Assembly: GCA_964597945.1 (NCBI GenBank)
Contig: CAZRAD010000002.1
Coordinates: 1-51,778, forward strand
Direction of reading: 5' to 3'
DNA from: an uncultured bacterium
GTDB taxonomy: Bacteria; Joyebacterota; Joyebacteria; Joyebacterales; Joyebacteraceae
DNA length: 51,778 bases
Shown here: piece after piece, positions 364-5,796 of the stretch
Numbering within the stretch: position 1 is the stretch's first letter
Layout: each line of letters begins with the position of its first letter
Program-made: the position numbers and the translations under genes
Notes under the pieces: generated by a model
What the model saw: the letters and a program-made list of their open reading frames with translations, nothing else
What the model was told of the DNA's origin: nothing
Database searches by the model: none

Positions 364-1092
364 ATGCTGCGCGTTATCGTGGCAATCATGGCTGTGGCGA
401 CACTCACGCTGTCGGCCGCGGCGTACACTACGACATGGGATGGCGATGCTGCTGGTGACATTACCATCTATCTCACCCTGGACTGCTACATCCAGATCGA
501 GTGGCAGGACACCGATATCGTCTTCGACGGAACAAGTGGGTGGTTCTGCGACCAGCTCGAGGATGTTCCCTACGCGGCTTGCCCTGACGGGGACGGGAAA
601 TTCCCGACCGACCCGTGGGCCGGTAGCAGCTACTACGCCAGCGATGGCTTGTTCTACGAGTCGGCTGACGGCGCGGTGATCTTCATCAGGTCCAACAATC
701 CGTTGTCGATGAGCGTGACGACGAACGGTGACCTGTATTTCGAGGAAGAAGGCTGCGAGTCCTACATCCCGACCTGGTTCACCATGTGCGCTGCGCCGTT
801 CATGGTTGACGGCGCTTGGACCGGCGTTGGCGACATCCCGGGTGACGGCTTCGGTACATATCTGAACGAGACCAGCACAGGCGTACTCGGGTACAACGAC
901 CCGGTCGAAGGATTGCACCCGAACCAGACGGCCTTCCCTTGCAGCCCCGCGACGACCAGCTGGACGCTCGGACCTCTTTGCCCGGGCATCGAAGGCACTC
1001 TGAAGTTCCTCGGTCGTATCCACCGCCACGGCATGGAGGACATGGGCGGCAACTACACAACGGTTCTGAACGTGCTGTTCACGAGCCCGTAA
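364..1092 (+). CDS. secreted hypothetical protein; candidate structural/major subunit of the secretin operon
   Basis: Track ORF 304-1092. ATG 364 is preferred because AGGAG lies at 351-355 and it opens a signal peptide, MLRVIVAIMAVATLTLSAAAY. Seven Cys, alternating beta-strand pattern, ends GGNYTTVLNVLFTSP. No family recognised by eye. Confidence 0.7.
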   Translation: MLRVIVAIMAVATLTLSAAAYTTTWDGDAAGDITIYLTLDCYIQIEWQDTDIVFDGTSGWFCDQLEDVPYAACPDGDGKFPTDPWAGSSYYASDGLFYESADGAVIFIRSNNPLSMSVTTNGDLYFEEEGCESYIPTWFTMCAAPFMVDGAWTGVGDIPGDGFGTYLNETSTGVLGYNDPVEGLHPNQTAFPCSPATTSWTLGPLCPGIEGTLKFLGRIHRHGMEDMGGNYTTVLNVLFTSP

Positions 1093-1102
1093 GCGGAAGT
1101 TC

Positions 1103-1135
1103 GGGAGGCGTCGGGGAGGCTCCCCGGCGTCTCCC
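1103..1135 (+). promoter_or_regulatory. intercistronic GC-rich stem-loop (15 bp including 2 G-U pairs, 3-nt loop)
   Basis: GGGAGGCGTCGGGGA-GGC-TCCCCGGCGTCTCCC sits between the stop at 1092 and GTG 1171. No U-tract follows. The next gene's RBS is at 1155-1165. Confidence 0.5.
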
Positions 1136-1170
1136 ACCTCCCTCGCGGGCTTCCAAGGAGGAGGATCATC

Positions 1171-2799
1171 GTGGACTCATCTCATCTCACTCTTTGCCTT
1201 GTCGTTGTCCTGGCAGCAACGCTTGCCACGAGCGTTGTCGCCCAGGAGACGGAGGTTCGCGAGGGCGGCATCGGTATCGGTCCGCTCAAGCTGATGGCCG
1301 ATGTGTCACCGGGCCAGACCTGGGAGGGCAGCTTCCGCATCGTCGGAAGCGTACCGGGCAGGCGCTCGGTCTTTGATATCAAAGTACAGGATCTCAGGCA
1401 GTCGGCGATTGGACACAAGGAGGCCATTGACATTGGGACTGGCGCCAGGTCCGCCTCCGACTGGATCGTTGTGGATTCCGAGATTAGTGTTGACGGGACC
1501 GAACAGCGCGATGTGTCCGTCTCCGTCCCCGTCCCCGAGGATGCCTTCGGTACGTACTCCTCGTTCCTTGTTGTCAATCTTCGTCCCGATAGACCGTCCG
1601 CCCAGCTCTCGGCGACAGTCGTGCCGACGGTCAACGTCGAGATCCTGGTGCGCGTTCGCTCGAGCGGTCCACTTGAGCTTGGCGTGGAGGGCATCGAACT
1701 CAGTTCGTCGGGGGGCGAGAGCGAACTGCTCGTCGATGTCCGGAACTCCGGCGTCTGGGAGAGCGAGCTTCGGGGCGATGTCCTCATGTATCCGGAGTCG
1801 GGTGGATTCCCCGAGCGCATCGAACTCCCGTACCGGAGCGACGGGCGACCGTTCGAACTCTATCCCGGGCAGACGATCCGGCTCCGCACACCTACGCCTA
1901 GGGTTCCGCCCGGTACGTATCGCGCCGTCGGACGACTCGAACTCGGCGAGCGGCGGGAGTCAAGAAGCGAGTTCGTCCTGGTCGTGTCCGGTGCAGGAAG
2001 CGCAGCGGCAGCAGCCTCGGTCAAAGGAACGAAGTCGGAGCTCGGGACGGACATCTGGATCGAACAGCCGGTGCATGAACTCAGCCTTCCGCCGGGTGCT
2101 GTCAGGTCGGTGCCGATTCGCGTCAGCAACCTCGGCGAGAGCGCTGTCACTCTGGATGTCATTGTGGAAACCGCACGTCTCGAGTCGGACGGTCAGTGGA
2201 CCTATGCGAGCGCGCCGGTCCCATCGCCGGGACTCTCGGTCGCGGTTTCACCCGACACGCTCGTGCTCGGGCCGAAGGCGAGCACCGCTGTGAGGGCAAC
2301 CGTGCAGATGGACCGAGACGCCGAGCTCGATCAGACCGTGACCAAGGGAGTGCGGTTCGTCGGGCGGCCCGGCGACGATGGTGGTGAGTGGCAGACGGTG
2401 TACGATGCCGGCGCCCTCCTCATTGTCAAACCGAGAGGTGCTGGACGCGCGGCGCTTCGGGTCAAGAACTTCGAACTGGTTCGCTCGCATCCCGAGTCGA
2501 ACCCCGGAAGCGCCGTACTTACCATTGCGAACGAGGGTGACGGTGTCGGAGAGGTGCGCGGTCGTGTATTGCTGCAGTCGGAAGCGGGCGAGCTGATCGC
2601 TGAGATGGCTATCGGCAACAGGAACTGGGAGCGTGTGATGCCGCAGGGTGAGAGGAAGTTCCGGATGTCGTTGCCTCTCGTCGCCGAAGGCGTCTTCACG
2701 GTCTCCGTCGATCTTGAGCAGAAGGACGGCGAAGGGGAACCGCTCACCGCCGACGCCTCGTTCACAAGCACGGAGACCGTGCCGGAGGGACTCCGATGA
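1171..2799 (+). CDS. secreted protein of four beta-sandwich (Ig-like) modules, internally duplicated
   Basis: GTG start preceded by AAGGAGGAGGA (1155-1165). Signal peptide LCLVVVLAATLATSVVAQE. The N-half and C-half align by eye, e.g. GPLKLMADVSPGQTWEGSFRIVG vs QPVHELSLPPGAVRSVPIRVSN, and LLVDVRNSGVWESELRGDVLMY vs AVLTIANEGDGVGEVRGRVLLQ. The halves are joined by an Ala/Ser linker, SGAGSAAAAAS. Confidence 0.75.
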   Translation: MDSSHLTLCLVVVLAATLATSVVAQETEVREGGIGIGPLKLMADVSPGQTWEGSFRIVGSVPGRRSVFDIKVQDLRQSAIGHKEAIDIGTGARSASDWIVVDSEISVDGTEQRDVSVSVPVPEDAFGTYSSFLVVNLRPDRPSAQLSATVVPTVNVEILVRVRSSGPLELGVEGIELSSSGGESELLVDVRNSGVWESELRGDVLMYPESGGFPERIELPYRSDGRPFELYPGQTIRLRTPTPRVPPGTYRAVGRLELGERRESRSEFVLVVSGAGSAAAAASVKGTKSELGTDIWIEQPVHELSLPPGAVRSVPIRVSNLGESAVTLDVIVETARLESDGQWTYASAPVPSPGLSVAVSPDTLVLGPKASTAVRATVQMDRDAELDQTVTKGVRFVGRPGDDGGEWQTVYDAGALLIVKPRGAGRAALRVKNFELVRSHPESNPGSAVLTIANEGDGVGEVRGRVLLQSEAGELIAEMAIGNRNWERVMPQGERKFRMSLPLVAEGVFTVSVDLEQKDGEGEPLTADASFTSTETVPEGLR

Positions 2800-4427: not shown

Positions 4428-4486
4428 GAGGTCGTGCGCATCGGAGAAGTCGAGATCGTATACGACTCGTGGAAGGAGACGTCCAC

Positions 4487-5098
4487 ATGAACAGTGGTAT
4501 CGCACTGCGTGCAGGCGGCAGGGTCCGAGCAAGACCGCGCGCGCGACCGTGGCCGTGTGCACGTTCTGGAGTCGCCGCGCTTGCACTCTGCGCCGTCGTT
4601 CTCCTGGCTGTCGTATCGGAGTGCGCGGCGGAAGAGTCGGTCGACATCTCGGCGGGGATGGGCATCAGCATCACCCGGGCCATCAAGGTCAGGCTCGTGA
4701 GTCCGTTCAATCCCAACCCGCGGTACATGGTGGGAAGACAGACCGCATCCGCCGCCGAACCTGGTGCGGAGGTCGAAGCCGCTGAGGTCGAAGCTGCCGA
4801 AATCGTCGTCGCGACGAACGACCCGAAGTGGAGCCTTATCGTGCGCTTCATGCTCCCCAAGGGAGTCGATCTCGAACTCCGCGAGGCGGTCGCACAGTGC
4901 CGTCTGGTCACTCCGGACGGCAAGCCCGTCAGCGAGCAGATCATCGATACGGCCGAGGTGATTCTCGACGGCAACGGACGGTGTGGAGAGCACACGCTCT
5001 TCCTTGAAGTGAGCGGCCACGCCGAGGCTCTCGGGATCGAGATGCTCACCGAGTCGACGGTCGATATCGACGGGTGGTTGGCGAGTGAAGAGAAGTAG
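4487..5098 (+). CDS. secreted hypothetical protein
   Basis: Track ORF 4469-5098. ATG 4487 is preferred, with GGAAGGAG at 4471-4478. Arg-rich n-region then hydrophobic core ALALCAVVLLAVVSECAAEE. Beta-rich. Short 15-nt tandem repeat encoding AEVEAAEVEAAE. No family recognised. Confidence 0.6.
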   Translation: MNSGIALRAGGRVRARPRARPWPCARSGVAALALCAVVLLAVVSECAAEESVDISAGMGISITRAIKVRLVSPFNPNPRYMVGRQTASAAEPGAEVEAAEVEAAEIVVATNDPKWSLIVRFMLPKGVDLELREAVAQCRLVTPDGKPVSEQIIDTAEVILDGNGRCGEHTLFLEVSGHAEALGIEMLTESTVDIDGWLASEEK

Positions 5099-5184
5099 GG
5101 ACCCGCGCGTGCGAGGTCTCGATGGGGTAGGGCGATAGAGCCCGAAAGAGGTGCAGTATCGCACCAGGAACGGGAGGTGTTGTC

Positions 5185-5796
5185 ATGAGACGATTCCTCG
5201 CCATCCTCATAGTAGTTCTCTCTACTGTGGTCGTTGTACCCGTGTCGGCTGATGTGATGGACATGGTCGACATCGGGGTGCCGGAGTCGGAGCTGGGTCA
5301 CAACATGGTTGGCTGGGGTGATGTGCAGTACGGCGATCTTCACGATCCGCCGGGACCGTACGGCGACGTCACAGTCTGCCGGGGCATCGATTGTCCCGAG
5401 TCGCTCGGAGACGGCGACATCGCGGCCTTGATCCTCCTCGATTTTGGTAGCGAGCCCGATGTGAGCCCGAGATGTATCACGCTCAGACATCTCGAGGGCC
5501 AGGCCGTGGACGCATTCGACCTCTATGTCTATGACATGGGCGGCACGCCGCCGGGCACGCTCGTGTTCAGCTATCCGGGTGACGAGCCGAACACCGAGCT
5601 CCAGTGGCATACGACGACGCTTCAAAACATCTGTGCGGGCGGTCCGTGCGTGCTCTATTTCGTCTCCACGGCGAGCCACTGGTCAGGCTGGTCCACGTAC
5701 GGGCAGGTGTACTTCGACTGGATCAGCGTGGAGTGCGAACTGGCGCTGCCGGTTGTTCCGGACACATGGTCACAGATCAAGGCGATGTACAGGTAG
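5185..5796 (+). CDS. secreted hypothetical protein ending in a W-x-x-I-K-x-x-Y-R tail
   Basis: GGGAGG at 5172-5177. Signal peptide MRRFLAILIVVLSTVVVVPVSADV. C-terminus …PVVPDTWSQIKAMYR*. No family recognised. Confidence 0.7.
   Translation: MRRFLAILIVVLSTVVVVPVSADVMDMVDIGVPESELGHNMVGWGDVQYGDLHDPPGPYGDVTVCRGIDCPESLGDGDIAALILLDFGSEPDVSPRCITLRHLEGQAVDAFDLYVYDMGGTPPGTLVFSYPGDEPNTELQWHTTTLQNICAGGPCVLYFVSTASHWSGWSTYGQVYFDWISVECELALPVVPDTWSQIKAMYR

Follow-up and report, generated by a model that had tools for sequence, protein, structure and literature searches.

A candidate chaperone-secretin pilus locus in an uncultured bacterium and its counterparts in Thermotogota

Introduction

Secretins are known from motor-driven machines, while the donor-strand pili of bacteria with two membranes are known to need an usher. 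The chaperone-usher pili (P, type 1, the alternate CFA/I-CS1, the archaic Csu/CupE, and ECP) share with the locus described here a predicted incomplete beta-sandwich pilin with a free N-terminal strand, a two-domain chaperone with a PapD-like fold, multiple pilin-like genes in each operon and the lack of an ATPase, and sister loci with a short version of our chaperone bear usher-like proteins. They differ in that here neither locus nor genome holds an usher (PF00577), a secretin being present instead, that the chaperone consists of two tandem modules, that the sequences lie outside the Pfam pilin families, and that the fibre is predicted from genes and models. What type II secretion (GspD), type IV pili (PilQ), Tad (RcpA), type III secretion (SctC) and filamentous phage (pIV) have in common with our locus is a genuine secretin (PF00263) whose N domains are short; here it is linked neither to an ATPase or platform nor to a prepilin peptidase or class III pilins.

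We know of no secretin in the cannulae (CanA), TasA, archaeal bundling pili or TLP-1 fibrils. These are donor-strand filaments, their subunits match the model of our predicted pilin (Z 4.9-7.1), and cannulae are described as chaperone-free in the title of one paper.

Two usher-free systems invite comparison. The Elr/WxL pilus of Enterococcus shares a DUF916/WxLIP-like chaperone, and usher-free donor-strand exchange is what we infer here. It belongs to monoderm Bacillota, with a membrane-anchored chaperone, a sortase anchor and no pore (bioRxiv 10.64898/2026.10.17.759780; WxLIP PDB 9i1y/9i25), and the word "secretin" has no occurrence in that preprint; by contrast, our chaperone has no hydrophobic end helix and our pilin no WxL Pfam match. 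The Pam pili of CPR bacteria, deduced from operon and structure to be usher-free, chaperone-assisted donor-strand pili, differ from our locus in their membrane-anchored chaperones and in lacking an outer membrane and a secretin (likewise no occurrence of the word; PMC13278184). A chaperone-secretin pilus pathway was not described in the literature searched.

Results

Layout of the operon

The window, which is the whole stretch of DNA that was analysed (positions 1-51,778), is the entire contig CAZRAD010000002.1, and the operon starts before its first base. Five same-strand genes with an ATGA overlap at 2796-2799, reported in an earlier note made from the sequence, were all recovered as open reading frames on the plus strand (the five from P1 to P5 below).

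2..58, plus strand: end of P0 (C-terminal 18 codons and stop; whole gene at C69:12368-13588), a secreted protein of ~360 aa with two putatively pilin-like repeats
364..1092, plus strand: P1, predicted major pilin, 242 aa from an ATG with a ribosome-binding site, seven Cys
1103..1135, plus strand: stem-loop of 15 bp between the pilin and chaperone genes, z -2.9
1171..2799, plus strand: P2, predicted tandem periplasmic chaperone, 542 aa, modules at residues ~33-290 and 293-540
2796..4427, plus strand: P3, lipoprotein secretin, 543 aa, lipobox LTGC with Cys23
4487..5098, plus strand: P4, secreted beta protein, 203 aa, ATG behind an AGGAG site, with an alternative GTG start at 4469
5185..5796, plus strand: P5, secreted protein, 203 aa, with the TWxxIKAxY tail common in this lineage

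The end of contig C69 agrees with contig bases 1-148 at 142 of 148 bases, and on C69 preA and preT-like genes precede P0. The absence of a local ATPase or platform, asserted in the earlier note, was borne out: no Walker A protein occurs among the picked genes of the whole contig, no ATPase among those upstream on C69, and no type IV pilus, T2SS or Tad gene set was found on that upstream stretch. Neither are the neighbours type IV pilins, as no class III signal peptide motif was matched among the picked genes of the whole contig and the P1 model is all-beta. The secretin, called an orphan in the note, is one at this locus but not genome-wide: the type IV pilus clusters of C80 and C132 contain two more. 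PilB/PilC genes lie on C80 and C5, the SprA translocon is encoded, and PF00577 has no match in this genome (96% complete; the E. coli control was positive).

Predicted pilin and hairpin

P1 is predicted from its model to be a pilin of the donor-strand-exchange type. Its signal peptide is followed by an unpaired N-terminal extension (mature residues 1-22) and a beta-sandwich (AlphaFold pLDDT 96.7). The best 35 rows of a structure comparison were all donor-strand pilus subunits (Z 5.2-7.1), chaperone-usher pilins forming the majority, and the best eight rows of a second comparison were again all donor-strand subunits. The structural scores are moderate (maximum Z 7.1; Foldseek E never below 0.001), and the strongest match, at Z 7.1, is a chaperone-free cannula subunit, with TasA and an archaeal bundling pilin also present. 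No sequence profile tying P1 to a known pilin was found, and neither P1 nor 75 homologues match the WxL family in Pfam. The description of P1 as Cys-rich does not extend to the family, in which a single Cys is shared by all of 30 close homologues and none by all of 75.

A hairpin stands 3' of the pilin gene in 7/7 loci, the other six, T. maritima included, having z values of -3.2 to -4.8. It is likely a device by which pilin is made in excess.

Predicted tandem chaperone

The model of P2 (pLDDT 83.7) comprises two PapD/WxLIP-like two-domain modules, with the chaperone fold, considered as fold only, present twice. Structural matches included WxLIP (Z 12.3), CupB2 (11.5), EcpB (11.4), SafB (11.2), CfaA (10.8) and PapD (10.8), all six aligning over both domains (rmsd 4.3-7.2 and 174-202 residues for the last five), and non-chaperone Ig/ASH-domain proteins also stand among the best rows at equal Z. 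By sequence, P2 matches a WxLIP profile (E 6e-5) and has an internal repeat (E 2.6e-4); DUF916 (PF06030) scores below cut-off (E 0.0025), and at E up to 0.05, PF06030 matched 9/13 family members and DUF3324 (PF11797) 3/13. No hydrophobic C-terminal helix serving as membrane anchor was seen in sequence or model.

A model of the P2+P1 complex scored 0.59 against 0.00 for the best control and was graded as weak support; its runs share at least 88% of contacts, with partner pLDDT of at least 81. The same mark is reached by 58/80 solved complexes and 2/110 mismatches, and was passed at 0.60 or under by 7/80 solved complexes and both mismatches. Because chaperone-pilin complexes have already been solved, the pass may stem from likeness.

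Secretin and flanking genes

P3, translationally coupled to P2 by the ATGA overlap, runs from its lipobox through a TPR-like region and two short N domains to a secretin domain, and is the proposed outer-membrane exit in place of an usher. The domain reading of the earlier note stands for the secretin domain (PF00263, E 4e-40) and less so for the remainder: TPR matches (E 2e-4 to 9e-4) fall under cut-off, and STN and Secretin_N match homologues of P3 rather than P3 itself. P3 scores under the curated cut-offs of the GspD, PilQ, SctC, MshL and HofQ models.

P0 is a candidate minor or tip subunit whose pilin-like character is suggested by motifs; its hhalign match to the P1 family is not significant, and homologues lie 5' of the pilin gene in seven aligned loci. 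P4, judged from sequence, is a candidate minor or terminator subunit, conserved beside the secretin in this subtype: homologues occur in 7/7 relatives' loci reaching past the secretin, and in L071, L201 and L202, and hhalign relates it to the second P0 repeat (60%, E 8.5e-5).

Census of chaperone loci

Through the P2 family we found 138 loci, not independent in that many come from related genomes; 74 have a secretin (counted if within 5.5 kb of the chaperone gene), 42 a large usher-like protein, none both and 22 neither, the usher-like count being partly circular because 30 of the 42 served to build the profiles and 12 did not. Of 12 usher-like partners searched, PF00577 matched three (best E 6e-5), and PapC gave E 0.0027. 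The usher-like profiles match in 0/74 secretin loci, and PF00577 was absent in 5/5 other carrier genomes searched. The earlier note had noticed neither the usher-bearing sister loci nor P0.

Fifty-seven of the 74 secretins lie within 200 bp of the chaperone gene on the same strand; in three loci the two genes are on opposite strands, 2.5-4.7 kb apart. All 74 secretin loci have a long chaperone, and none of 57 short-chaperone loci has a secretin. In a prospective set, retrieved after this prediction was fixed, a secretin accompanied 18/20 long chaperones, both misses being at contig edges, and 0/18 short ones. The long chaperones L143 and L147 adjoin large non-secretin proteins. A PilB/PilC/PilM match within 7 kb was found in 1/74 secretin loci. 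A quick secretin tree gave two changes, and the chaperone-linked secretins were not demonstrated as one clade.

The block asked after in the earlier note is conserved in relatives as the trio of pilin, chaperone and secretin, a predicted arrangement found in several phyla. In Thermotoga maritima it lies at AAD36190-AAD36194, where AAD36193 is the secretin, and the operon occurs also in T. neapolitana, T. petrophila and Pseudothermotoga species. The partner genes in Thermotoga share homology with P1 (hhalign 94%, 42 columns), and their nearest named Atlas clusters are WxL and SCPU (0.90).

Discussion

We consider it probable that these genes encode a chaperone-secretin pilus pathway, in which the secretin replaces the usher and folding energy drives assembly. 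We lean, more slightly, towards the broader proposal of a distinct ATP-independent route in at least five phylum-level groups, common in Thermotogota, where a minimal secretin is the exit and assembly site and the doubled chaperone takes over the docking function of the usher. The earlier note envisaged a minimal export or fibre system that depends on a secretin and includes a chaperone-like factor in the periplasm, in agreement with the predicted pilin and chaperone and the secretin described here; of the neighbours it listed as cargo, fibre subunits or chaperone, the 242-aa protein is the predicted subunit and the four-module Ig protein the predicted chaperone, while the gene at 5185-5796 fell away.

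P1, P0 and P4, which have signal peptides, would cross the inner membrane via Sec. P2 would bind P1 and complete its fold, as fold homology between models and, weakly, the complex model suggest, and the unpaired N-terminal strand of the P1 subunit that follows would oust the chaperone strand, yielding energy for growth without ATP as in chaperone-usher and Elr pili. The thin growing fibre may leave through the secretin, to which both gene linkage and the position of the secretin in place of the sister loci's usher-like gene point; the usher-bearing sister loci would thereby explain its role. More speculatively, given the association of long chaperones with secretins, the second P2 module may offer a site for docking, a function served elsewhere by the periplasmic domains of ushers. 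Adhesion or a biofilm matrix is a likely use of the fibre.

If true, the catalytic role of the usher can be filled in another way, a growing fibre alone can open a secretin gate, and a secretin machine without its own motor would combine two pathways regarded as unrelated. A function would also be assigned to hypothetical genes of numerous uncultured lineages; the chaperone-pilin pair is open to reconstitution in E. coli, as done for the Elr pilus, and heat-stable fibres would be of interest as materials.

Several other explanations bear on these data. To our knowledge, an ATPase belongs to every characterised secretin machine, as a review sets out in its treatment of type IV pili, Tad and T2SS, and a PilC-type platform is encoded elsewhere in 68/68 carriers tested (here with PilB on C80 and C5), so that the motor may be a borrowed one. 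P3 could accordingly be a dedicated alternative pore using a type IV pilus or T2SS motor encoded elsewhere, with chaperone-primed pilins exported as T2SS-like cargo and polymerising outside. We hold this to be unlikely: the type IV clusters come with secretins of their own, extra secretins are not matched by extra platforms in T. neapolitana (three secretins, two of which are linked to a chaperone gene, and a single PilC gene), inspection of the loci revealed no linker gene of the GspC/PilP kind, and sister loci with an usher-like gene show that the subunit-chaperone set requires just a pore partner. A little less likely still is passive exit of single subunits, as through CsgG for curli, with a sheath, matrix or self-assembling filament of the cannula or TasA type as the product; P2 would then nucleate assembly or be built into the structure, instead of acting as a chaperone that is recycled. 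The cannula subunit as best P1 match, the presence of TasA and the archaeal bundling pilin, and the weakly graded complex score would fit such an exit, but chaperone-usher pilins dominate the best 35 P1 rows, both P2 domains align with CupB2, EcpB, SafB, CfaA, PapD and WxLIP, and short P2 relatives adjoin usher-like proteins.

Existing annotation offers a different reading, namely a secretin of DNA uptake or type IV pili (PilQ/HofQ) with incidental neighbours. Databases name the Thermotoga homologues GspD/HofQ, and TM1117, CTN_1450, CTN_1933, TRQ7_01410 and TRQ7_08710 are pilQ in a table labelled manually curated, although the functions given there are putative (Table 6 of PMC5637354). We regard this as very improbable, given 57/74 secretins that abut a chaperone gene against 1/74 near a type IV gene, and the separate long secretin adjoining pilC in T. 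maritima; the secretins now named PilQ/GspD in Thermotoga would be reassigned under a chaperone-secretin pathway. Most improbable, by a shade, is that P3 exports P5, a GH5 mannanase-like protein and FlgD-Ig proteins as cargo. These genes do lie behind P3 in the same orientation here, and large secreted proteins of a comparable kind stand next to several FCB-type loci; the proteins, however, bear T9SS-like or TWxxIK tails that occur genome-wide, SprA is encoded, and Thermotogota loci do without such neighbours. P5, which the earlier note had counted as possible cargo or part, was rejected as a component of the system, its occurrence being patchy (3/6 relatives' loci that extend to its position) and its C-terminal tail common to 53 ORFs of the source genome, P5 counted.

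The locus and its genome

The five same-strand genes set out in the earlier note are all present as described, and the identification of one of them as a secretin is borne out (PF00263, E 4e-40). A sixth gene ends at the start of the contig:

2-58, + strand: C-terminal end of P0, pilin-like
364-1092, + strand: P1, predicted major pilin
1171-2799, + strand: P2, tandem chaperone
2796-4427, + strand: P3, lipoprotein secretin
4487-5098, + strand: P4, secreted beta protein
5185-5796, + strand: P5, secreted protein

P3 carries an LTGC lipobox (Cys23), and its start overlaps the stop of the preceding gene. 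A scan of the operon for promoters and terminators returned nothing above chance.

We consider it probable that these genes encode a chaperone-secretin pilus: a donor-strand fiber with a secretin at the usher's place and folding energy in place of ATP. Such a system would work like a chaperone-usher pilus but has no usher; like type IV systems it has a secretin, but neither a motor nor a platform is linked to it and class III pilins are lacking. Chaperone pili that do without an usher have been published from Enterococcus (bioRxiv 10.64898/2026.10.17.759780) and CPR bacteria (PMC13278184), which have no outer membrane and whose papers, in the parts available, do not mention secretins. The operon differs from described chaperone-assisted donor-strand pili by its secretin, and a literature search covering few subscription papers found no description of an operon that joins a secretin to a donor-strand chaperone and its pilin (further literature: PMC13721041, PMC11494351, PMC10160955, PMC4390875). 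If confirmed, this would be a new use of secretins.

A canonical type IV, T2SS or Tad set hidden upstream would have offered another account of the secretin, but nothing canonical was found there. The window is the whole of contig C2 of a 2.74-Mb, 96%-complete genome. In that genome the full P0 gene stands at the end of contig C69, whose terminal bases agree with window 1-148 at 142/148 positions; the six mismatches point to strain variation where the two contigs join. Upstream of P0 on C69 are preA and a gene resembling preT, and no Walker A protein is encoded there. The two further secretins of the genome belong to typical type IV pilus clusters, alongside pilM, pilB/pilC and pilin genes and, since these clusters have their own secretins, its type IV systems are not short of a pore.

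Conservation in relatives

The order P1-P2-secretin is kept in all eight further loci that match P2 (L012-L018, L022), one of them from Krumholzibacteriota, and P4 comes next in 7/7 relatives' loci reaching that far. The distribution is patchy (P2 match in 8/30 genomes of the family). In one relative (L018:3051-4573) the chaperone gene is frameshifted into three pieces in the assembly, through assembly error or decay.

P5, which the earlier note had counted within the system, is present in only 3/6 relatives' loci. Its C-terminus (window 5755-5796) reads (S/T)WxxIKAxY, a tail found on 53 ORFs of the genome (P5 and 52 others) and possibly a minimal T9SS-type sorting signal. Because the TWxxIKAxY tail is genome-wide and the SprA translocon is encoded, P5 and a GH5 gene are most simply read as cargo of another route. 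Large secreted proteins follow one another across window 5800-30226; their C-termini carry FlgD-Ig/T9SS-like domains, and GH5, beta-helix, cohesin and lamin-tail domains occur among them. A perfect sigma-70 consensus promoter (7698-7726) precedes a 1556-aa gene.

Predicted structures of the chaperone and pilin-like proteins

The P2 model consists of four beta-sandwiches (pLDDT 83.7), and its halves are alike (27% over 103 residues, E 2.6e-4). Its structural reading was drawn from a VIA structure search, which was more useful than Foldseek, where the list for whole P2 was dominated by ciliary ASH-repeat proteins and WxLIP, from the Enterococcus system, stood at ranks 19-20. Residues 293-540 matched WxLIP (Z 12.3, rmsd 7.2, 229 residues), CupB2 (Z 11.5, rmsd 4.3, 174 residues), EcpB (Z 11.4, rmsd 4.4, 178 residues), SafB (Z 11.2, rmsd 4.5, 180 residues) and CfaA (Z 10.8, rmsd 7.2, 202 residues), and residues 33-290 matched PapD (Z 10.8, rmsd 6.8, 198 residues). 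Non-chaperone Ig proteins score equally (Vpr, Z 12.6; CEP192, Z 12.5), so the fold alone is no proof of a chaperone. A profile of 13 diverse P2 homologs had WxLIP as its sole significant match in the PDB (E 6e-5). Planctomycetota are the commonest source of P2 look-alikes in the Atlas; no locus of our census is named as Planctomycetota.

P1, P4, P5 and P0 match no known family by sequence (Pfam/NCBIfam, PDB profiles). The P1 model (pLDDT 96.7) leaves mature residues 1-22 outside the sheet. Its best structural match is CanA (Z 7.1, rmsd 6.8, 137 residues), followed by CsuA/B, CfaE/CfaB, the PapG pilin domain, FimG, CupE and TasA. Donor-strand subunits fill the first 35 rows of one search and the first eight of another, with every Z middling and a best Foldseek E of 0.0017. 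A predicted P2-P1 complex scored 0.59, while the highest of three controls reached 0.00. This lends weak support, as a pass at or below 0.60 is usually false unless the pairing was likely a priori, and already solved chaperone-pilin complexes may inflate the score. As hhalign gives P0 and P4 no link to the P1 family (1.9% and 3.5%), their putative pilin role is drawn from motifs, position and the match of P4 to the second repeat of P0 (60%). A strong hairpin lies between the pilin and chaperone genes in 7/7 loci folded (z -2.9 to -4.8), which fits a pilin made in excess.

Chaperones with secretins or usher-like proteins

Secretin and chaperone profiles were searched against 401 genomes, 59 of which matched the chaperone. 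Outside the family, the eight best-matching secretins all lie in chaperone-secretin loci: in seven the two genes share a contig (L071, L072, L074-L078), and the eighth stands at a contig start (L073), its genome's chaperone being at the end of another contig (L121). The next twelve (L079-L090) are without a chaperone, most among type IV/T2SS-like genes. Chaperone and secretin on one contig occur in five groups treated as separate phyla (the window's own and those of G065, G366, G085 and G228) and in family f52, absent from their lists. Matches are sparse in places (1/57 genomes of G228's phylum, 1/7 of G389's).

The chaperones form two classes, long tandem ones with a secretin and short single ones with a large protein (roughly 670-2100 aa) bearing SdrD_B-like C-terminal domains; 3/12 large partners tested gave a weak usher match (E 6e-5; PapC, E 0.0027). 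Both classes occur in the window's family, with a secretin in the window's genome and eight others and an usher-like gene in L038, L145 and L148. In Thermotogota (68/129 genomes matched), 40 of 89 matches were taken, spread over the families and with preference for long contigs; among them 38/38 long chaperones have a secretin no more than 5 kb away and 2/2 short ones an usher-like gene. Every new match from two more phylum searches was also taken: a secretin accompanies 18/20 long and 0/18 short chaperones, both misses lying at contig edges.

Over all 138 loci, which include related genomes and are thus not independent, and of which the first 20 were found via P2 or the secretin itself, 74 have a secretin, 42 an usher-like gene (30 of these proteins having trained their own profile), none both and 22 neither. 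Many of the last are at contig ends or in cells that appear to have no outer membrane. The secretin lies within 200 bp of the chaperone on the same strand in 57/74 loci, and 1/74 has a type IV gene 7 kb or less away. L143 and L147 are exceptions, with long chaperones and no secretin; L135 and L137 are long by ORF length and short by matched span. Three loose usher-like matches (L133, L147, L219) were dropped, taking 45 to 42, the secretins of Thermotogota L192, L195 and L197 were included, and eight weak chaperone matches (G300, G265, G103, G165, G206, G080, G267, G111:C21) were left out. On a quick tree of 59 rows the linked secretins group together (2 changes, where shuffles give 15.1). The non-linked set of that tree consists of 17 secretins chosen for closeness to the search profile, with GspD/PilQ/RcpA references absent, so the grouping is compatible with one origin or with several.

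Cultured carriers

Thermotoga maritima MSB8 carries pilin-like AAD36190 and AAD36191, a chaperone, the secretin AAD36193 and AAD36194. T. neapolitana has two chaperone-secretin loci, and named chaperone homologs also come from Pseudothermotoga and T. petrophila. The Thermotoga pilin family aligns with that of P1 (94%, 42 columns). Of the Atlas clusters that bear a name, the closest to this Thermotoga family are, at 0.90, WxL (18% of members) and SCPU (14%), which is a lead only. A table in PMC5637354 lists these Thermotoga secretins as pilQ competence genes. Parts of the T. maritima locus are covered by RNA-seq contigs in 4/4 runs, which we do not count as evidence since a DNA origin is possible and the contigs give no gene ranking by depth.

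Mechanism and the question of a motor

The data show gene linkage, predicted folds, and that no locus combines a secretin with an usher-like gene. By analogy with chaperone-usher and Elr pili, the chaperone would donate a strand to the pilin and the next subunit would replace that strand by its own, folding energy standing in for ATP. The position of its gene makes the secretin the candidate fiber exit; more speculatively, the second chaperone module might replace the usher's docking domains. Type IV pili, some 6 nm across, leave the cell through secretins. The Elr fiber is given as 4 nm wide (bioRxiv 10.64898/2026.10.17.759780), so size should be no obstacle to such an exit.

The main rival to this folding-driven pilus is a motor borrowed in trans from a type IV system. 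PilC is encoded by 68/68 carriers tested, as borrowing would have it, and our attempt to establish motor independence through a carrier without a platform therefore failed. However, the type IV clusters already include a secretin, and T. neapolitana has a single PilC for its three secretins.

Variant loci

L026:2737-7349 (G017) is a different subtype, with a secretin, a 221-aa pilin and a 560-aa chaperone, lying behind preA at the chromosomal site that the window subtype occupies in sister genomes, a whole-cassette exchange. L038:184-6496, L145, L148, L124-L129 and L221-L238 are widespread divergent chaperone-usher-like operons of FCB and other lineages, comprising a short chaperone, several small pilin-like genes and a 670-2100-aa SdrD_B-bearing protein, mostly missed by PF00577. 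A second gene stands behind the secretin in L074:4461-6257, L075:7182-8984, L076:2782-4584, L174-L176, L179, L182-L184 and L190-L192, opening with N domains of the secretin type (in L074, STN at E 8e-8) and having a beta-barrel-like tail. Other Thermotogota have at that position a protein of 370-395 aa with Phe as its last residue, AAD36194 in T. maritima; a 471-aa relative of the second gene with a faint secretin match lies beside a short chaperone in L126. L144 (G099, a 0.8-Mb genome), L130, L140, L146, L150 and L157 have a chaperone gene and pilin-like genes but no secretin and no usher-like gene; L144 may, at a guess, be a Pam-like CPR locus. G755 has three chaperone-secretin loci of two subtypes, and at L218:3677-10773 six small pilin-like genes stand in a row before the chaperone and secretin.
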